From: a virus
Strand: one strand, 5' to 3'
Virus record (IMG/VR): IMGVR_UViG_3300036987_000083
Span: 1 to 64,000 of that record
Length of the DNA stretch: 64,000 nucleotides
Below the pieces are notes generated by a model that was given only the letters and a program-made list of their open reading frames with translations, had not been told where the DNA came from and did no database searches. Positions 7,475 through 55,790 of the stretch are shown one piece after another (within the stretch, counting starts at the first letter, position 1; each line of letters starts with the position of its first letter). The position numbers and the translations under genes are program-made.

Positions 7475-8695
7475 ATGCCCCCTAAGAGCCTTACAAAGTG
7501 CGTGGTCCGAGACTGCAGAGCTACTCCACCACACTGTGGTCACTGTCAGAGGAGTCCGAGTGACGGTGCTCACGAGATGGATCTACGCACCGCGCGTCAG
7601 TCTGATTGCTGGCCTGAGTACGTAGAGGTTCAGTGCATCAATTGCCACAAAGACGGCTATACAAAGCTGGTTCCGACACAGGTTGACTGGAGTTGCTCCT
7701 AATGGACTGCGGATTTCAGTGTTTTACGGTTGATGCTCCTGGGGCGGATCCCACTTGTCCCATCCACAGCCGGATTGCGGGGGAGCGGGCGGCGGTCGAG
7801 CTTGCGTGGCGGGAGGTAACTGCCGAGCATACTGCGCAGCTTGAGGAGCAGGAGGCGCGCATCGCACGGCTGGAAGAATTGGTTACATCACTGCGGGATG
7901 CTGTGGCAGGCATTCGAGGCTATCTGGAGCTTGATGAGTAAGCGAGACGACATGAAGTGCTACGCCTGCAACGGTAGCGGCTACTACGACAACACAGGCA
8001 GCCCTAAGTGCAGCTCTTGTGGTGGAACTGGTAAGCGAAAGAAGCAGATGAAGCCGAGCAATCCACGTCAGGTCGTTCTCTTCCTCAAGGACTGGTACAA
8101 ACCTGGGTCTGCCATGAAGGCACGCAATGTGCCTCTGAAGGAGAAGCCCGATGTGCTTTGGACTCTCTTCCGAGAGACGGATTTAGCCAGTCCCCCAAAG
8201 CTTCCTATTGTCCCTGTGGTTCGAATCAATGCGTGGCCGGAAGATTATCTCCATGACTGGAATTGGCGTCGTGGCGAACTCATCTACTCTTCACGGTGCG
8301 CGGATGGTCCTGTGTGGATTTTGCTGGAGTACCAGGGCACGCAGTACTGACGGCCGACCACGTGGTCGCTTGCGGAATTCTCCACCTCGCGCTAGAAACC
8401 CGCCTCGATGACGATGAGGTATGTGGACAGGAAACGTCAAGCAGCCCAGTATCATCGGGATCTTGTTGCAGTGAACGTAGCGAAGGGGTTGGAGTTGGCC
8501 CAGCGACAGCGCGGGGAGCTGCTCACCCCGCCCGAGCACAGTGAACTTGAGCTTACTGCATTGCTTTCCGTATATCTCGTAGCCTTACAGGTTACGGGCT
8601 TCGTAGACGATGAGGCTGCGCAAGGCCGGATATTTCAACGGGCTACGAAGTTGGCGGAGGAGAAGTTGGGGACGGCACTGGAAGTGCTTCGTTAG
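7475..8695 (+). CDS. Operon of small genes (7475-7702, 7702-7941, 7934-8350 with CxxCxGxG Zn-finger pair, 8408-8695)
   Basis: Overlapping start/stop codons; Cys motifs CYACNGSG and CSSCGGTG. Confidence 0.6.
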
Positions 8696-11336
8696 CCGGC
8701 AAATCAACCTGCCTGTAGAACAACTGCGCAGCCTCGATGCTGCACTTTACAGCAGATTCGAATTGCTTCGATGTCAGCAGGTGTCGCATCTCCAGCGTGT
8801 TACTGCCGTGGTTTAGCGTCATCGCCCCCGCGAGAGAATTCACTAGAATTTCTCGGGCTAGTTGACGTACTTCTTTGCTCAGCCCTTTTTCCCTTTTTAG
8901 CTCCATACACTTCACCTTCGTCCCATTACTACGTTGATGCACGGTGGAATGAAATCGTTGAGTGCCACTTCTTCATCTACGAGGTTTGAGTCTCGCTTCG
9001 AGGCCTGTAGCGCCATGTAAAGTCTCCCACAGGCGTGAGAAACACGCAGCGCTACTTTAGGGGGCACATAAGCCGTCGAGAGCCAGCCCCCGCGCTTGGT
9101 GGTTCGAACGGGGAGTACCTTCTCAATTATGTCGCGAGTATTACGGACCGAGAGCCCACCTAATAGCCAAGCAATGTCCTTGGCTTGCTGTTTCGTCATC
9201 CTAACCGTCACGGTGCTTTTAGCTCGTCCACGCAAGTGAACCTGCTTCTTGTTGGAGGCGCTCATGCTTTCTCTATTACTGCGTCATGCCTTGGATTGTC
9301 AAGCGCAGTGTCCCAGAGAACCGCGCATGTGGGTAGCCGAAATGTGATTTTACCTGTGTTAGCCCCCAGAAAAGCTTGGACCATTCCCGAGGTAATATAG
9401 CCGCTCGGTGGCTCCTGCAACAAGTCTCTGTGGTCACAGGCCGCGCGCATACTGAGGGGCTCCAAGTCTTCGTGATCAGTAGCTGCCGCTAGGGCCTTCA
9501 GTGCTCGTTGTGTCAGACAAACTCGGTCCATCCGCTATTCGTAGTACCTGGAGCTGCTGTAGTCGGTCAAGCAACGCTTGGGGCGCTACTTGAGTCCCTT
9601 CAGGACGTAGTCCGGGTCTTTGCCTTGTTCGATGAGGGCTAGGGCTACTGCTTCGTAATACTTCGGTCTAAACGGTAGCTTGCTCTTTATTGTGAGTGTT
9701 GCGGTGAGTACCGCAATGGCGACGCTGAGGTTTTTTGAATCCGCAACCAAGCGCGGTTTCAACCACTTATTCACCAAGCCGGGGTTCTGGATGTTGGCAT
9801 GTACGAAGTCAAAAATTTTTGAGATTCCTACCATAACATCTTGCATGCGTCCTTTATAACACCCTGGTGCGTAGGACGGCGAAGTAGTTGCTTGCTGGAG
9901 CTTGGCAGCTTGTCTTGGGGCGCCACTGTGGTGCCAAGCCCCTGCTTACTTAGTTAGCGCCACAGTCAGCGCCGCTACGGGCAGGCTTCTCATCATGTCC
10001 GCCTTGGCGCAGGAGGCGCACTCGGGGAGCCCGGCGCGCTCAGGACGGGTATTACAGTTGCCGTGAGCCGCTCGGTGGGAGCCCTCGATGAGGCGGGCGC
10101 AGTGCTCTCTAGCGCGGAGGGCCACTGCGTCCCTGTCCTTGGCCAGCTTTAGCACTTCCAGAAGCGCGTCGCGTTCCCATCCAGAGTCAAAGTTGTCGAC
10201 TAGTCTTTCGATCTTTTCAATTGCTGTCATGGGGTCCTCCCGGACTCCGTTCTGACTTGCAGGTTCACGCTGTCCTCCTGGCGGCGCAACGGTCTTCCAA
10301 GGTGTAGCACCATTTGCAATTGTACCAAGGCTTACACAGGCGTCCGCTGATGACAGCGACGATGTTTCTTCCGACGACTCGCTCCTTGTGCGCGAGTTGC
10401 ACTGCCTTGGCTTTGTACTTGCCATTTATTCGCCAAAACTCAACCACAGTCAGCGCCGCCGTCTTAGCGCCCATTGTGCTTCCTCCAATCGGGTAACACG
10501 CAGCAATAGCTAAATTCTTTCGTCATTTTGTCTTCAGGGCCGCCCGGAGGTGTGTAGCCCACCAACGTGCGCGGCTGACAAATGAAGGCGATTGGCAGGC
10601 ACTTGCGAAGTCCCCGTGGAAAGGGACGTGCTGCCCGCCTTTTCCACGGGAGTCCGCGTAAGCGACTGTACGCTCAAATTCGTCAGTAATTGATTCCAAT
10701 GCGTGCTCCAGGGTTGCAATGCGCTTGGATCGATTCTCTGCAATCCTCTGCCACTCCGGCCACTCGCATGTCGCCGTAGGGTGGTACTCCATCCCCTTGT
10801 GGAACTTGTCGGGGCAGTCAGCAATTTGCCTTCCAGGCCAAATGCCTCCCCCGCACGTCGGGCACAGCGCTTCTCCCTTGCCGCTCATGGCTTGGCCTTT
10901 GTGCGTGGGGGTGTTTCCGGCATCTCGGTGTTGTTCACAATCCCACCTCCTTCGGGTGAAGGTCGCAGTTACCGTCCCTGTCGTAGTCGCGCTCGCAGCA
11001 CTGTCCGGTGGCTTTTACAATAGCAGTCTGCACTGCTCGTTCCCAGGGCAGGTTGCGAGACGGGGGTTCGTTTTGCGCCCATGCGCGCGCCTCGCGCAGG
11101 GCTGCGAGCATGTCTTCGGCAGCGCCTTCCAGCCTCCCTTGCTTGTTTGCGTCGTCCCACTCTCGCGCCCACGCTGCGCGTCGAGCCTCTGCTGCTGCTT
11201 CCACGCGAACGGGATCATGCAGCGTGCAGTAGTCCCGACCCCCTCGATTGATTTTGGCGGTATGCGCACACTGCCGAGAGTGCATGGTTCCGCTCGAAAA
11301 GACTCGTTCGCAGCACCGTTTGACCTCTTTATTCAT
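8643..11336 (-). CDS. Run of hypothetical genes (8643-8906, 8912-9265, 9262-9531, 9586-9846, 9946-10230, 10265-10474, 10523-10888, 10935-11336)
   Basis: Co-oriented, closely packed ORFs with RBS or leaderless starts. Confidence 0.55.
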
Positions 11337-11709: not shown

Positions 11710-14363
11710 GCGTCTTCCGTTAACGCAGTGCAGAGGGCGTGCAACGCGTGGCGCTCGCGAAAATCGATGGAGTCGAAACCCTGTCCGCGAGTCAGCAAGT
11801 AGTCTCGCGCGGATACCAGCGCCTCTTTTAGTTTCGCGGCACGAGCTTCGGCTCGCGCTGCTCGCTCGTAATCCCTTTTTTGAAGTGTGTGGATTTGCTC
11901 GTAGGTGCCAACCCACGTTTCTACCTCATCACGCAGCTCTGCTACCTCATCACGCAGCTCTGCCACGGTGGCTTCGGCTTTGTCTCTTTGTTCGATGATG
12001 GTGCCAAGGTTTTTACGTGTATCCTCATAGGGGGTGGCTTCGAACCCTGCGGTGTTCAGGGCCGCCACCAATGGGTAGAGATGCTCGCTAAAATTGAATC
12101 CCTGCATTCCGACCATCGAATTGCGAATGTCATTTACCTTGCGGCCAAGCTCCTCCAGTTCCACGATGCGGGTGTGGAGGGCAGACACCTTTTCGCAGCA
12201 GAAAGCGCAATCACTCGTTTCACAGTCGGGACAGCGCTTCATGCTTCCTCCTTGTTCCGAGTGGTGTAGCGCAGACGACAGCCTGTCGCCGCGCTACGTC
12301 ACCATGCGTGCGGAGGCGCTCCGGGACGCAGACCGCGCAGCCGCAGTGCCAGGCTGCCGAGGCGTGCAGGTAGCGGGCAAGCGTGTGGCGCTCGGCGCTC
12401 GCTTGCGAGCGTTCTGCCTTGCGGTGGTTACTGGTGCGGAAGAGGTCGTCCGTGGCATTCACCAGCCAGAGCGGATCGACGAGGAACACGCAAATGGTGA
12501 TGAAAAGCGGCACCATGCACGCGACTAGTAGAGCGAGCCACATTACGTCTTTTCCTCAGCCGCGAGGGCGGCGCGAGCCTTCTCCCATGCTCCCGGAGGC
12601 GGCATGCCGTCCACGAGACACGCTTCTGGCATTAATCCTCGCAGCGCCTCCTCCAACTCCTTTACGCGTGCCACAAGAATGGCCTCTGGGCCTCTGAGCT
12701 TGTCAATAGCCGCTAATACCCTGTTGTAAGCCCAAGTCTTCAGCGCGGGCCGCCCTAAGATAGTTACATGCAAGAGCATGCTGATTGTGAAACCAACTAC
12801 ACGCTCAGGAGTGAGTCCTGGCATACTCAAGACTCGTTGATCAGTTTTGTCCGTGATTGAGATGTAATACTCTTCAAGCTCATTACATCTGATTTCATAC
12901 TTACAGTAGTTATCTTCGTGGATGATCATTTGAACAAAGCCCTCATTGTAAGGTTCGCGGTGGTGTGAATCACGGGCCATCCTTCGCCGCGAGGGCAGCT
13001 CGGGCTGCCTCGCACTCTGGTTCGTGTCCTCGATGGGAGCACTGTCCTGCGCATTGGCCAGCGGTGCGCTTGCCGATGGTTTGTGAGTGCAAAATCGGCA
13101 TGAGTCCCCGCAGTGCCTGCTCTAGTTCCGCGATGCGCACCTTGTCGAGTTCATTCTCGGCCTTGGCGCACAAGCCCTCCTCGGTAATTCGATTGTCGTC
13201 CGTAGGCGGCTCGCATTCTAAGACGTTATTACCTGCACGGAGGCGTTCGACCGCGCAGCCATGGTCAGGGCCGCAATACTCCGACGCCAGCTTGGCGACG
13301 TGGGCCCGGAGTCGTACTACCTCTTGTTGCGCGGCGGTGAGCGCCGCCCACGTCTTGCTGCGTGCCGCCTGGGCCTCTCCCGTGCGACGCGCGTACAGTC
13401 CGGCTTCATGCGCAGCGCTGTCAGCCAGTTCGCGTAGCGTCTCGCAGCGGGCCAGCGCTGCGTCGCGCTCGCGCGTCACGCGCTCCAGAGTTTCGGCGTC
13501 TCGGATGCGAATAGACTCTGCCAGTCCGCGACCGCACACTGGGCAGACCGCCATGTCCATGCACTCGTGAATCATTTTCCAGCTCCCGTCACGAGGGGCG
13601 TGGCCCGGACAAGCCGCGCCGCTTGCTCGGTGCGTTGCCCTAAGTGCGACTCCCCCGCACCCATACGGACCATCTCCGCAAGTCGGTCACACGCCTCCGC
13701 GCACTTCTCGCGCTGCCTCTCGGCCACGCCGTCGAGCGCCGCCAGCGCCTCGTCGCGCTCACGCATCGCCGCCGCTAGTCGATGCACAGCCACGTTCGGG
13801 TTGTCGACGAGCAACGCCAGCGCCGTGTCGCGCTCCTTCGTCACGCGCTCGGCGTCGGCCCGCGCCTCGTCGCGCTCCTTTTCGGCCTTCTCGATGTCGT
13901 ACAGGTAGTCCTTCTCGCGGTCGAGGAGTTGATCCCGCAGTCGCACAGCCTCGTCGCGCTCGGCCCGCGCCTCGTCGCGCTCCTTTTCGGCCTTCTCCAG
14001 CGTCTTGAGGCTCGTGGCATTAGCGCGCTCTACCTGAGCGCAAAAGTCGCGCCACTCGTCGCGCTCGCGGATTGCCGCTGCTACCTGTCGCGCAGCCGCG
14101 CTAGGGCTATCTGCTGCCAGCGCGAGGGCGTTATCGCGTTCCCTCGTTCGTGTGGCGAGTTGCAGGTTGACCGCTGGCAGCTCGTTAACCACGAGCCAGT
14201 CTACTTTAGCCTGCGCCTCGTCCCGTTGCTTTTCGGCATGTTCCAGGGCCGCAACAGTGGCGAAGAAACGGTCATCATCAAGGGGGCACTTGGTCGCAGG
14301 CGCGCCGTGGTACGCAACGAGTTTCTGCGCCTCCTCTAGCGTGTAGGGCTTCCCGTAGCTCAT
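11706..14363 (-). CDS. Coiled-coil, Ead/Ea22-like genes (11706-12242, 12220-12543, 12543-12929, 12970-13575, 13572-14363)
   Basis: Heptad repeats (AELRDEV x2 from a 21-bp tandem duplication at about 11921-11962; EKAEKERDEARA x2); RAALAA.E termini. Confidence 0.55.
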
Positions 14364-14487
14364 TGCGAACCTCTACACCAAGTAGCTTGTGATTGTCAAG
14401 CGTTCCTGAATTGAGTAGGCACCTCCAGTGAAAGCCGGTACTTGTTGTCGTCCTCCCCTTCATGCTGAGGGGACGTTTTTGTGGTTG

Positions 14488-33985: not shown

Positions 33986-34522
33986 GTGCTACTCCTTGGT
34001 TCTTCGAGTGGAGAACATCTATACTGCATGCAGACTGCCCTTGTCAAGGGCCAAGAGGCCAGCATATCTCCCAGCTTCCGTTAGCATTGCGCCTCCAGAC
34101 GGTATGGACTACCTCCGTGCCCAAATCGCGTACTTGCACGCTGTACTCCGGCGGGTTGAAGAGCTTCGACACTTTCTCCAGTCGGTCAGCGGCGGCCTGC
34201 GCCGCAAGTAGCCCCTCGTACACGCCCTCCACTTGGTAGATGACTTCCTTGGCGTCATCCAGGCCGGAGGACATCAGGATGTAGACTCTCACGGCATCAC
34301 CACAAAGGAGCTGGTGAGGGTACGCGGACTCTGCATCGGGGCGGTGTCGAGGACCATACGCGTCTTGTAGCACAAAAAGACCGTCGTTGTCAAGTACATC
34401 CTAGTGGAATGTGGGTAGGGAGTTTTCTGTACCCTGTCGCTGTCAGCGACCATGTGGTCGCGGGTGCCTGGGTAGGGCTACCGATGAGCTATAGGCCTGA
34501 GTAGCCCGAGCTACTTCCCGAG

Positions 34523-34594
34523 TGACCCCACCGGGATTCGAACCCGGATTCTCACCTTGAAAGGGTGGCGACCTAACCCTTAGTCGATGGGGCC
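34523..34594 (-). tRNA. tRNA-Glu (TTC)
   Basis: GGCCCCA/TGGGGTC acceptor, CT-TTC-AA loop, CCGGG-TTCGAAT-CCCGG T arm. Confidence 0.92.
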
Positions 34595-34687
34595 TTGCTG
34601 CTGTTTTTCTAGCATGAGGTGAGTAGAAGTACGAAGATTACGGGGGACCACGTCAACAGCGTTTCGATTACAACTTGTTTTGTCATA

Positions 34688-34759
34688 TAGACGCGGCTGG
34701 ATTCGAACCAGCGACCCGCTCCGTGTAAGGAAGCAGCTCTACCCCTGAGCTACGCGCCT
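34688..34759 (-). tRNA. tRNA-Val (TAC)
   Basis: AGGCGCG/CGCGTCT acceptor, GCTTC-CTTACAC-GGAGC anticodon arm, TTCGAAT T loop. Confidence 0.92.
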
Positions 34760-34760
34760 G

Positions 34761-34833
<73 letters not shown>

Positions 34834-34920
34834 AAACAACAGGGGCGTGGGATATTACCTTTCGGATTGACTTCCCCAGTTTAAGCCCCGGATCAAACCC
34901 TGGAGCACCCCCTTTTCCGC

Positions 34921-35100
34921 TTAGCCGATATCCTCCACAAGGACAGTCTTCCGTCCCGCCGCCTTGGCTTTCTCCGCCGCCGCAGCGTAAATCCGTTCCA
35001 CCACCCGGCTGAGTTCCTCGATGGCTTCCGCCCCGGTACGAAGACCCTGGGCCTTCCCAAGGGCTTTCACTTTGCTAGTTACTACTAGAATTTCGGACAT
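34921..35100 (-). CDS. Bacterial histone-fold protein (Bd0055/DUF1931-like), 59 aa
   Basis: MSEILVVTSKVK...RTGAEAIEELS.....AAEKAKAAGRKTVLVEDI closely follows Bdellovibrio Bd0055 (MAEVLVVTSKVK...GRKTVMARDI, from memory). Confidence 0.85.
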   Translation of the reverse strand: MSEILVVTSKVKALGKAQGLRTGAEAIEELSRVVERIYAAAAEKAKAAGRKTVLVEDIG

Positions 35101-35237
35101 GGGTTTTCCTTGTTGTACGGTTATGGACAAGAGCAGCCTACGTGATGAGCCCGCCAGTCGGGGCACCACGGTTTGTCGCCGCCATCCGGATGAGGGATAC
35201 CTTCTGCGGAGCGCTTAGTCAACCACAGTAGTTCTGA

Positions 35238-35432
35238 CTACTTGATTGGGTTCTCGTCTACATCCACGATGCGGAGACGGCGCTTACGCGCTACGCCTGC
35301 GGTAATGGCCTCCGAAGCGGTGTAGTCGCTGTGGCTGTGCTCCGTAAAGCACTCTTGGGTGCAGATGGCCTTCAGCCTTCCACCTTCGTACAGCCGCTCT
35401 CCGCACTCCTTCTTCTTGGTCGCGTCATCCAT
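35238..35432 (-). CDS. Small hypothetical protein
   Basis: ATG shortly after a TTGACA promoter at about 35463. Confidence 0.5.
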   Translation of the reverse strand: MDDATKKKECGERLYEGGRLKAICTQECFTEHSHSDYTASEAITAGVARKRRLRIVDVDENPIK

Positions 35433-35477
35433 GCTCTGTACATAGCACGATGTACCTGCCGGTGTCAAGCGGCGGGA

Positions 35478-36688
35478 CTAGGAAGAGTTCGAGCTGTGGT
35501 GGGTGCTCGTCGCCCTTGAACGCAGGATGGAGTGCATCCTCCTCCGCACCACCGACCCTGACCACGACGTCGACCACGCCCTCGACCTCGACCACGCCCT
35601 CGACCTCGACCTCGACCTCGACCTCGACCTCGACCGCAGCCACGCCCTCGACCACGCCCTCGACCATGACTTCGTCAGCCGCCTAACAATCATCAGGCTC
35701 ATACGGTCCTTTCTCTTGAATGGCGAGTGGAGCGCATCCAGCACGGCGTGCTCGACCTCGCCCTTGAGATCGAATGTGACCTCGATATCGACTGTGCGTT
35801 AGACCGTGACCGCGCCCGCGACGGCGACGACCACATTCCCGTCCACGCCAGTGACCACAGCCCAGTCCGCGAGCCAGACCGCGTCGACACCCGCGACCAC
35901 ACCTTCGTCCATGACCACGTCCGCGTCTTTGGCGGCCGTCTAACAACGATCAGGCTCATAAGGTCCTCGCTCTTGAACGTTGTGTGGAGCGCAACCCTCC
36001 CCGCGCCGAAACGTTTGAGCTCGACCATGCCCCCGACTTTGACTCTGATTTGGACCACAACCTGGACCCCGACCGCATCCACGACCCCAACCTGGACCTC
36101 AACTCCGACCCCGCCCTCGGCCTGGACCTCAACTCCGACCCCAACCACGACCTCGACGTCAACCACGACCATCCACCAGGGCGTCGCCGAACAATAATTA
36201 GGCTCATATGGCCCTTTCTCTTGAGCGGCGAGTGGAGTGCATTCGTATCCGCACCACCGACCCTGACCCTGACCTCGACCCCGACCTCGACCACGACCTT
36301 GACCTCGACCACGACCACAACCACGACCACAACCTGGACCCCGACCTCGACCTTGTATTCGACCTGGACCACGACCTCGTTTTCGACTTCGTCAGCCGCC
36401 TAACAACGAGTAGCTTCATACCGCCCTTCTTCTGAGGCGGCCGGGCCTACCCTCCTCTAAAATTGAACCCGTGCGCGACCATACCTGCGTCCGTAGCTTC
36501 GATAGAGCGTGGATGCGGTTTCTGGACCACGCCAGAGACTTAAACTCCTTACGTCTCGTACCCCGTACTAGTGATTTTAGCGCCAAACGCAACGGCGACT
36601 GTACTAAGGACTGTAACGTGTGACGCGGCCCTAATAGGCGCCGCGCCCGAGTCATTTCCAGTCGACGCACTACGAGTAGTGTCGTCAT
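35478..36688 (-). CDS. Five tandem coupled Arg/Ser/Trp low-complexity genes (36416-36688, 36204-36419, 35956-36207, 35699-35959, 35478-35702)
   Basis: Each begins M(T/K/S)xL(L/I/M)(V/I)VRR; all linked by ATGA overlaps. Confidence 0.7.
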
Positions 36689-43837: not shown

Positions 43838-43909
43838 AGGCCTGTAGCTCAGTGGTAGAGCGCGCTCCTTATAAGAGCGGGGTCACGGGTTCGAGTCCCG
43901 TCGGGCCTA
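43838..43909 (+). tRNA. tRNA-Ile (TAT)
   Basis: AGGCCTG/CGGGCCT acceptor; CGCTC-CT-TAT-AA-GAGCG anticodon arm (anticodon 43870-43872); ACGGG-TTCGAGT-CCCGT T arm. Confidence 0.9.
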
Positions 43910-44176
43910 CTCCAGACTAGAATCCCCCAAGAACAAGAGCCCTGGGGTGACCTCGGCTGACAGTACCGTGGAAGGATCTTCCAAGGGATGACCCCAGGAG
44001 ACTTACCCTGGTCGGGACTCAGTGGAAGAACCCGTCCGGCTCCGGCGGAAGAGGCTAACAGCGTCCACATGGTCGCCGATGGGATGTGGGTTCCTGGTGA
44101 TGACACCAGGAACCCTGGTCAGGCTCGTCCTTGGCGCCTCCTTGACAATGAGATGGCTACCTGCTAGTGGTGTGCC

Positions 44177-54123: not shown

Positions 54124-54187
54124 TTGTTTCCTCGGGTGTTGCGGGTGTCCCCCACCAGTACCACGACATGCCTGCCGTTGTCAAGAA

Positions 54188-55325: not shown

Positions 55326-55790
55326 TTACTCGACCGCAGTATCCAGCGCCTTGAGCTGCGCCTCCAGCGCCTCCGACTTGGTGGAGAGCGCGAGGAAGAC
55401 CTTGGCGACCTTCTCGGTGGCCTTCTTCGCCTTGGCGACCGCCTTCTCCAGCGCCGCCCGCGAAGCCGCCGCCTTCGCCGCCGCCTTCTCCGCCGCCTTC
55501 GCCGCCTTGATCTCGGCAGCGGTCAGCTTGGGCAGGCTGGCCTTCACGATCTCCTCCGCCGCGTAGAAGCTGGCGGGGCGACGCCCCCGCTTCCCCTCGA
55601 ACTTCGCCATGTGCGCCTTGGCCTCCTCCACCGTCATGGGCGCGGCCTCGGTCGTCGCCAGCTTCGCCTTGAGCGCCTCCAGCTCGGCCTTGAGCGCCTC
55701 GACCGTGGAGGTCGGGTTGACAGCGACCTCGGTGACGACCGGGGCAGTGTTGACGACGGGGGCAGTGTTCTCGTTGGTAACGGTGTCCAT
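55326..55790 (-). CDS. Ala/Lys-rich basic protein with a KRGRRP motif
   Basis: Extreme GC3 codon bias; own promoter (TTGACA about 55878); KAAKAAEKAAAK tract. Confidence 0.75.
   Translation of the reverse strand: MDTVTNENTAPVVNTAPVVTEVAVNPTSTVEALKAELEALKAKLATTEAAPMTVEEAKAHMAKFEGKRGRRPASFYAAEEIVKASLPKLTAAEIKAAKAAEKAAAKAAASRAALEKAVAKAKKATEKVAKVFLALSTKSEALEAQLKALDTAVE

Follow-up and report, generated by a model that had tools for sequence, protein, structure and literature searches.

Here, we describe a histone carried by a phage: a 59-residue protein, P0001, that by sequence and predicted structure is an α3 histone of the HBb/Bd0055 'bacterial dimer' type, and whose gene belongs to a phage-borne histone lineage. 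It is encoded in a 64,000-nucleotide stretch of viral DNA, the window, which covers positions 1 to 64,000 of an IMG/VR virus record of 179,489 bp (CheckV completeness 88%). We moderately favour the reading that P0001 is made early and acts as a homodimer that would bend or coat DNA independently of its sequence, serving as the HU/IHF-like protein of this phage.

Fold, class and DNA-contact residues

The histone gene lies on the minus strand (34921..35100; α3-truncated histone fold of the HBb/Bd0055 type) and reads from an ATG at 35100 to a stop codon at 34921-34923, giving 59 aa and a stop. An alternative longer frame of 82 aa starts from a GTG at 35169, but because a Shine-Dalgarno-like AAGGA (35107..35111, minus strand) is placed 6 nt 5' of the ATG, and because the N-termini of homologues align at Met1, we take the 59-aa form to be the product. 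Every motif that a preliminary description of this DNA had quoted for the 59-aa protein (VVTSKVK, EAIEELS, AKAAGRKTV and EDI) is present in P0001, which has a net charge of +2 and a pI of 9.2. In a phmmer search of all PDB chains, its residues 1-58 match HBb/Bd0055 (8fvx, 8cmp) at an E-value of about 5e-11, and HMMER recovers 111 relatives at E<1e-3 among 1.84 billion representatives; in these searches the similarity to histones is far beyond chance. Alignment with homologous genes gives synonymous-only differences at 14-24 of the 59 codons, a pattern of substitutions typical of coding sequence. Pfam returns PF00808 alone (E 0.001; 19.7 bits, under the 21.4-bit cut-off) and no match to the DUF1931 profile at E≤1, and PHROGs returns a single meaningless match (E 0.15). 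Neither a tblastn search of 50,697 GenBank phage records nor an IMG/VR scan with P0001 as single query gave a match.

The AlphaFold2 model of P0001, based on a 64-sequence alignment, has a pLDDT of 93.4 and a helix-loop-helix-loop-short-helix arrangement (α1 8-17, α2 24-47, α3 55-58) in which α3 is only four residues, or one turn, long. Foldseek against the PDB ranks the HBb entries 9ezz, 8fvx and 9f0e best (TM 0.90-0.92, rmsd about 1 Å, 52% identity), followed by Leptospira HLp and archaeal HTkC, and then by HMf-type and eukaryotic histones at a TM of about 0.6; the comparison with HMf itself gives a TM of 0.55-0.63. The preliminary description had made its assignment hang on a histone fold, and model and structural search both find one. 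To be read as likeness to HBb rather than as independent proof, because the HBb dimer has already been solved, the prediction of a P0001 homodimer has an ipSAE of 0.80 (median of three runs) versus 0.00 for the best of three controls, and passes a mark that 20 of 30 proteins known to form one-chain pairs attain, as does one of 23 proteins with a single-chain structure. Between runs, at least 96% of the contacts are the same, the partner pLDDT is at least 90, and loop L1 (residues 20-23) contacts residues 51-53 of the partner copy.

The class of 'bacterial dimer' α3 histones, which includes HBb, was defined by Schwab et al. (2024; PMC11390915), and its conserved α1 lysines occupy profile positions 11, 13 and 17 (PMC11390915). 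P0001 has the marks of the HBb class, namely similarity over the full length, a one-turn α3 and a shortened α2. It also keeps the RKT motif of L2 and the RD clamp (Arg50-Lys51-Thr52 and Asp57, corresponding to HBb Arg51-Lys52-Thr53 and Asp58), and its α1 entry (Thr8, Ser9, Lys10, Lys12, Lys16; a Thr-Ser-Lys-x-Lys pattern) is identical to that of HBb. The resemblance to HBb of Bdellovibrio bacteriovorus (8fvx, 8cmp, 9ezz, 9f0e), at 52% identity full length, thus covers the truncated α3, the short α2, the L2 motif, the clamp, the α1 entry and a predicted dimer. In contrast to HBb, P0001 is phage-encoded, its L1 is one residue shorter, it has no C-terminal tail past α3, and it sits in a tRNA cassette instead of a chromosomal locus. 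The preliminary description had called the protein a histone of the 'Bd0055/DUF1931 type': the Bd0055 half of that label fits the 'bacterial dimer' assignment, but DUF1931 denotes a different group of α3 histones. Since no DUF1931 Pfam match was obtained, and since HLp (9qt0), a Leptospira 'DUF1931' histone, is matched merely at E 0.01 with 31% identity, we place P0001 outside the DUF1931/face-to-face group.

How far are the DNA contacts of HBb kept in the phage protein? Contact counts for HBb derive from simulations, which rank Asn22 first and Arg57 second, followed by Ser9, Thr53, Thr8, Ser24, Lys10, Lys12, Lys52 and Lys16; in that protein the RD clamp is Arg51-Asp58, and Arg57 contacts the DNA backbone (PMC11317129). 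Seven of these ten main contacts are identical in P0001 (Thr8, Ser9, Lys10, Lys12, Lys16, Lys51 and Thr52), and three differ, with Asn22 replaced by Arg21, Ser24 by Gly23 and Arg57 by Glu56. As an observation on the family, contacts Asn22, Ser24 and Arg57 are non-defining for HBb histones and vary among members.

The preliminary description had noted that the usual arginine of RKTVxxRD is replaced by glutamate, and had suggested that this could lower DNA affinity. The replacement itself is borne out, as Glu56 aligns with HBb Arg57 in the phmmer alignment; the suggested consequence is not, given that the clamp is intact and that glutamate is normal at this site in HMfA and HPhA. These archaeal histones wrap DNA with Glu at the equivalent position, and the L2-α3 segment of HMfA/HMfB and HPhA is near-identical to that of P0001, the Glu before the clamp Asp included (AGRKTVKVEDI in HPhA, GRKTVLVEDI in P0001). 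P0001 nonetheless differs from the archaeal nucleosomal histones, as it is without the full-length α3 and longer α2 that let these form tetramers and wrap DNA. Across 145 aligned domains, Glu56 occurs in 27, and Arg21 accompanies it in 26 of these, whereas 49 of the 68 domains with Arg at position 56 have Asn or Ser at position 21; this association comes mostly from one weakly supported clade (SH-aLRT 81), with too few supported independent contrasts. Because glutamate is normal in HMfA and HPhA and 26 of the 27 relatives with Glu56 carry Arg21, Glu56 is, in these alignments, a clade signature and not a lesion. Positions 21 and 56 share one inter-subunit DNA site, so that the arginine of the L1-L2 site looks relocated from α3 to L1 rather than lost. 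Glu56 is not among the confident cross-interface residues of the predicted dimer, so no pairing of Arg21 with Glu56 is seen there. Weakened DNA binding or a dominant-negative role of P0001 is not indicated, because the clamp is intact, archaeal wrapping histones carry Glu, and Glu56 comes with Arg21.

Phage genome and histone lineage

The contig is that of a genuine 179-kb myovirus. PHROG matches identify a portal (E 7e-63), a gp23-like major head protein (E 4e-74) and a tail sheath (E 8e-55), and a head protease and a terminase with an HNH insert are also encoded; the capsid protein is less than 35% identical to that of any GenBank phage. The genome has a GC content of 58% and one histone gene only, and a search for an HU/IHF gene (PF00216) in the phage found nothing. 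Its source is a large, uncultured phage of groundwater. The contig is a metagenome assembly without terminal repeats, and the whole stretch is present in two DNA sequencing runs (groundwater and coal), either of which may be its source sample; RNA sequencing runs containing the stretch are not listed.

The nearest relatives of P0001 are rare and come from metagenomes only, with identities of 72%, 66% and 59-60%, and most of their clusters have one or two members. All eleven relative contexts that were read are phage-like. Around them are arrays of small unannotated genes, SNF2 helicase, Tad3, VWA proteins and a response-regulator receiver, as well as intein-bearing RNR, thymidylate synthase, dCMP deaminase, PolA and a PD-(D/E)XK nuclease, and the more distant clade members adjoin either thymidylate synthase, dCMP deaminase and RNR or else PolA. 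Three IMG/VR genomes (190, 187 and 168 kb) carry relatives as well, and one of the three has terminal repeats. A histone gene nested in host sequence on a misassembled contig, the other ground on which the preliminary description would have withdrawn its assignment, is therefore not what we find: the contig is a bona fide phage contig, and the relatives lie in phage DNA as well.

The best cellular matches are 51-59% identical to P0001 and belong to Bdellovibrionota, a few Iainarchaeota and four bacterial genomes (G006-G009), the last with histones at 53-59% identity and a genome GC content of about 60%. In one of these four the histone gene follows glyS in an ordinary chromosomal context, and comparison of their tRNAs with those beside the phage histone gives a generic 80-89% identity and no host signal. 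The IMG/VR and cellular hits were obtained with a 7-sequence alignment and the pattern LVVTSKVK, which favours Bdellovibrio-like N-termini, so the list of cellular matches is biased. Because none of these matches is closer than 51-59%, no genome sampled so far looks like a recent donor of the gene, which does not identify the host. The suggestion that the histone hints at the host is accordingly weak, as identities rise to 72% inside the phage clade and Bdellovibrionota histone loci have a median GC content of 44% versus 58% for the phage; a published survey of phage histones also predicted other hosts for phages with such proteins (PMC13681535).

The tRNA cassette and the Cys/His module

As the preliminary description had it, the histone gene stands directly upstream of tRNA-Lys, tRNA-Val and tRNA-Glu genes on the same strand. 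The minus-strand tRNA-Lys(UUU) gene (34760..34833) begins 87 nt past the histone stop codon; tRNA-Val(UAC) (34688..34759, minus strand), the sole Val(UAC) gene of the phage, abuts it with zero spacer, and tRNA-Glu(UUC) (34522..34594, minus strand) is the third of the group. The contig has 46 tRNA genes, and since 40 of these sit in one island at 129.9-142.7 kb, the histone-linked trio is a mini-cluster of its own. The 87-nt spacer between histone and tRNA-Lys has no stable fold (z 0.54) and no Rfam family.

This arrangement recurs among relatives. At four loci (L012, L014, L015 and L016) tRNAs lie no more than 100 bp past the histone and include an abutting Lys(UUU)/Val(UAC) pair, as in the window; at L008 the order after the histone is tRNA-Asn, tRNA-Lys, one ORF and tRNA-Val, and at L009 and L010 Val, Asn and Glu tRNAs follow 1.3-3.5 kb downstream. 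The tRNA-Lys of the window is homologous to the histone-linked Lys tRNAs of L008, L012, L014, L015 and L016, and more generally the Lys and Val genes of the cassette are homologous between loci and have the zero-spacer junction in common. With its counterparts in L012 and L014 the cassette tRNA-Lys shares 85-89% identity, versus 81% with the second Lys(UUU) gene of the same phage, in the main island, a difference that is small. Almost nothing else was found to be shared with these loci within 8 kb on each side of the histone-tRNA unit, and the three large IMG/VR genomes that hold L014-L016 (G001-G003) gave no match to the capsid family or portal of this phage. With the flanks unshared and capsid and portal unmatched, histone and tRNA pair persist together while their surroundings change. 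No tRNAs lie near the histone in clade members further removed (38-53% identity), which makes the tRNA linkage a trait of the closer subgroup. At P0133 and P0144, gene-free gaps of 726 and 245 bp follow the histone. The linkage could be historical rather than functional.

The small genes around the histone form a long array on the minus strand, preceded by sigma70-like -35 motifs. The phage-wide motif TTGACANNGGCAG occurs in 30 copies in the 64-kb window against 1.3 expected, 28 of them on the minus strand. One of these copies is the promoter-like motif TTGACACCGGCAG at 35456..35468 (minus strand), the putative start of a unit of the histone and three tRNAs, and the next promoter-like copy on the minus strand (34035..34047) is the likely downstream limit of the unit. 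Between the two are a 64-aa ORF of unassigned function (35238..35432, minus strand; the first gene past the motif, with no Pfam match), a decayed Cys/His ORF, the histone and the three tRNAs. Read most simply, this layout would have histone and tRNAs co-transcribed early, from a promoter of the host-polymerase type. Support for the promoter comes from the repeated -35-like motif, the -10 being poor at the 35456-35468 copy: a strict -35/-10 pattern misses the site at 35468, and a scan of 34300-35600 for a consensus sigma70 promoter found nothing. A terminator scan of 34300-35600 gave no site between the two motif copies.

The histone family is often fused to a second module. In L008, L014, L015 and about a dozen database clusters, the histone is joined in frame to an N-terminal Cys/His module of about 40 residues, with seven Cys and one His in a pattern of about 30 aa (C-x2-C-x3-C-x4-C-x2-C-x2-H-x3-C-x-C). 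The module also occurs as stand-alone small proteins, and the VWA-domain gene upstream of the histone in L012 carries it as its C-terminus. Searches of Pfam (ZZ included), PHROGs and the ESM Atlas gave no match to it, and AlphaFold2 models a fused relative with middling confidence only (pLDDT 73); the module is a probable metal-binding one. Its counterpart in the window is a decayed ORF of 33 codons (35121..35222, minus strand), closed by a stop codon and in another frame than the histone, in which only four of the eight metal ligands remain. The window histone is thus an unfused, stripped-down form of an often-fused family, and we propose that a small Cys/His module was linked or fused to the ancestral histone of this phage lineage.

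Proposed role, alternatives and implications

From the computed family, fold, predicted dimer, contact residues, viral origin and cassette synteny, we infer DNA binding, timing and target as follows. In the predicted dimer, two copies of P0001 pair head-to-tail, with L1 (Leu20-Gly23) of one packing on L2 (Lys51-Val53) of the other. At each end, the L1-L2 pair and the first turn of α1 (Thr8, Ser9, Lys10, Lys12, Lys16) would contact the DNA backbone across the minor groove with no sequence preference, so that the dimer may bend or coat DNA as HBb does. The preliminary description had likewise suggested, as a possible role, that the histone coats or protects phage DNA. Relative to HBb, the changes of Asn22 to Arg and of Arg57 to Glu would move the arginine of the L1-L2 DNA site and not remove it. 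Since the phage is without an HU/IHF gene, the most likely role of the dimer is that of an architectural nucleoid protein made by the phage for itself, with phage DNA in replication, in transcription or in its packaged state as the substrate. The histone is probably made early and abundantly, on a transcript shared with tRNAs whose processing would set the 3' end of the mRNA, because it lies with three tRNAs in one inter-promoter interval behind a sigma70-like -35 element; its lineage seems to travel as a cassette with the tRNA-Lys/Val pair. An acidic residue at the site of HBb Arg57, a Gly at that of Ser24 and a net charge of merely +2 are points against the proposed DNA binding.

The chief alternative is that such a protein targets the host. 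An early-made histone could coat or compact the host nucleoid and shut off host transcription or replication, in the manner of T4 Ndd or chlamydial Hc1. A minus-strand array of small genes behind sigma70-like -35 motifs is the usual site of early host-directed genes, HBb-type binding is sequence-independent (PMC11317129) so that host DNA would be an equally good substrate, and the same has been proposed for H1-like proteins of other large phages (PMC12619734). However, the distant clade members lie inside phage nucleotide-metabolism and replication modules, a better fit to a role on phage DNA, and this phage has no other HU/IHF-type protein for its own DNA; we consider host takeover unlikely, if worth keeping in mind. 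Far less probable is that P0001 heterodimerises with an HBb-type histone of the host and alters host chromatin, as a dominant-negative or hybrid partner. Interface residues are conserved with cellular homologues at 51-59% identity, and the two residues that are systematically unlike HBb both fall at the inter-subunit L1-L2 DNA site, so that a hybrid dimer would have asymmetric sites, with Arg21 and Arg57 at one end and Asn22 and Glu56 at the other. Yet a strong homodimer is predicted, Glu56 is ordinary in functional archaeal histones, and the Arg21/Glu56 signature is common to the whole phage clade, fusions with the Cys/His module included. The preliminary description had entertained such a dominant-negative partner of the host histone; this requires a putative histone-bearing host. 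The GC content of 58% does not fit Bdellovibrionota, whose histone loci have a median of 44%, and the published survey predicted other hosts for such phages, so that the idea is weakened.

The position of the histone before tRNA-Lys/Val raises the thought that it acts on RNA, in tRNA or transcript handling, and the adjacency does persist in divergent phages while flanks change. Every characterised relative binds double-stranded DNA, though, and the DNA-backbone contact residues are conserved in P0001; distant clade members are without tRNA neighbours, and the 87-nt spacer has neither notable structure nor an Rfam family, which leaves an RNA role highly improbable. We give next to no weight to an artefact, be it a chimeric contig that carries host DNA or an ORF that arose by chance. 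That the contig is a metagenome assembly without terminal repeats would allow it, but phage hallmark genes lie on the same contig, two runs, either perhaps the source, contain the whole stretch, complete phage genomes of IMG/VR, with terminal repeats, have histone-tRNA cassettes homologous to this one, and the coding-type substitution pattern and highly significant homology leave little room for chance. A last reading goes beyond the role that we favour and is correspondingly doubtful: the histone, the tRNA-Lys(UUU)/Val(UAC) pair and the Cys/His module, whether fused, adjacent or decayed, may be one mobile early-expression cassette with a functional linkage. Such a cassette would move between large phages without detectable capsid or portal similarity, its histone being phage-adapted by the move of the arginine from α3 to L1; the tRNA pair would provide strong transcription and a processed 3' end, and the metal module would target or regulate the histone.

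How does P0001, as a putative HU/IHF-like homodimer, relate to known systems? Histone folds like that of Bd0055 were reported in Caudoviricetes in 2025 from IMG/VR 4, as 84 proteins (BBVHFPs) with predicted dimers (PMC13681535), so that P0001 is a further case of an already known type, and its contig may well be among the 84. It has the Bd0055-like fold, the predicted dimer and the IMG/VR tailed-phage contig in common with these proteins; the BBVHFPs are, however, described with a C-terminal helix (PMC13681535), which the 59-aa P0001 is without. In the text of that report, the words 'trna', 'zinc' and 'cysteine' occur 0 times each and no Arg21/Glu56 signature is given (PMC13681535). The 'Phage histones' of Schwab et al. 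(2024) likewise have an α3 fold and lie on tailed-phage contigs, but they have a C-terminal helical tetramerisation domain and no RxT...D motif, whereas P0001 has RxT...D, has no extra domain and ends two residues past the clamp Asp. The module fusions among P0001 relatives recall the ZZ histones, in which an N-terminal ZZ zinc finger precedes a bacterial-dimer histone (Schwab et al. 2024), although the phage module has no ZZ Pfam match and P0001 itself is unfused, with no N-terminal domain. Three features are modest but concrete novelties against this literature, namely the cassette with tRNA-Lys/Val, the Arg21/Glu56 signature, and the fusions to a Cys/His module that has decayed in this phage; a literature search for these three found no other paper.

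Phage HU-type proteins such as SPO1 TF1 are small, abundant, phage-made dimers that bend phage DNA. The role that we propose for P0001 is the same as that of TF1, although the HU/IHF and histone folds are unrelated. The characterisation of bacterial histones began only in 2023, and whether they coat DNA while leaving it straight or bend it is still in dispute. At the two HBb positions with the most DNA contacts, the phage copies offer naturally occurring substitutions (Asn22 to Arg and Arg57 to Glu), and they are small, easily expressed and directly comparable with HBb. The cassette and the Cys/His fusions, both absent from the published survey, are testable handles on expression and targeting. 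Were the reading as a mobile cassette true, the phages would possess a chromatin module with its own rules and not a borrowed host gene. If P0001 is used in an HU-like manner, or acts on the host nucleoid, histone-based chromatin would extend to the viruses of bacteria.

The Cys/His module and the neighbourhood of the histone gene

The small domain that is often fused N-terminally to phage histones, here termed the Cys/His module, spans ~30-40 residues and contains seven cysteines and one histidine, with the core ...CGEPWC..C..HYADC.CPGPH. A decayed copy is present in the window at 35121-35222 (minus strand), and further copies are found at the loci of two relatives (L015:5872-6177 and L008:87-395) and in proteins P0118-P0127, P0132, P0171 and P0211, among others. 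The module occurs in phage-histone fusions, as free-standing small proteins, and at the C-terminal end of a VWA-domain protein encoded at L012, the locus of another relative. Searches of Pfam, PHROG and Atlas returned no match to the module, which is uncatalogued.

At L012, the VWA-domain gene lies upstream of the histone gene and a gene for Tad3 (anti-Thoeris) lies 3-4 kb downstream (8677-9741 and 13988-14422). This VWA-histone-Tad3 layout, seen in one phage lineage (L012 and the contexts of the relatives P0133 and P0144), recurs in three independent contig sets.

Architecture and cellular kin of the phage histones

Tandem histone doublets are common among the relatives, including P0022 and P0101 (237-238 aa) and P0004, P0005, P0009 and others (~120-150 aa); in two of the doublet relatives an extra N-terminal Cys/His-rich domain of ~60 residues precedes the doublet. 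Two more distant phage relatives, L017:5854-6177 and L018:5827-6171 (44% and 38% identity, respectively), carry Lys-rich N-terminal extensions ahead of the histone fold that resemble histone tails.

Among the closest cellular kin of the phage clade, at 53-59% identity, are the histones of four related bacterial genomes of 2.9-4.4 Mb, each with two HBb-type histone genes (G006, with L046:6001-6174; L023; G008; G009); GC content is ~60% for L046 and L023. One of these histones, with Arg in loop L1 and GKKT as loop L2, is encoded immediately behind glyS.

tRNA genes, a promoter-like motif and other phage genes

The phage encodes 46 tRNA genes, a near-complete set, of which 40 form an island at 129.9-142.7 kb of the contig (L005:5893-18661); sites outside the island include L006:1941-2017, L006:6559-6633 and window 43838-43910. 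The histone-adjacent trio stands apart from the island, and Lys(UUU) and Glu(UUC) are present twice, once in the island and once beside the histone.

Against an expectation of 1.3, the window contains 30 copies of the motif TTGACANNGGCAG. The minus strand carries 28 of these (for example 2135-2147, 35456-35468 and 54172-54184), and the motif is probably the -35 part of a phage promoter serving small-gene arrays.

In a 1497-aa ORF (L004:1766-6256; contig positions 105766-110259), an HNH endonuclease segment is found together with terminase-like ones, pointing to an intein or a homing-nuclease insertion within the large terminase. In the translation of P0117 (window 55326-55790, minus strand; 154 aa), the AT-hook-like motif KRGRRP precedes a helical stretch rich in Ala and Lys; the protein is a possible second DNA-binding architectural protein.

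In a 187-kb IMG/VR phage, the histone-tRNA cassette is closed by a tRNA predicted by ARAGORN with the anticodon UCA (L015:6861-6933; 'SeC'), which would read UGA and could serve as a suppressor or recoding tRNA.
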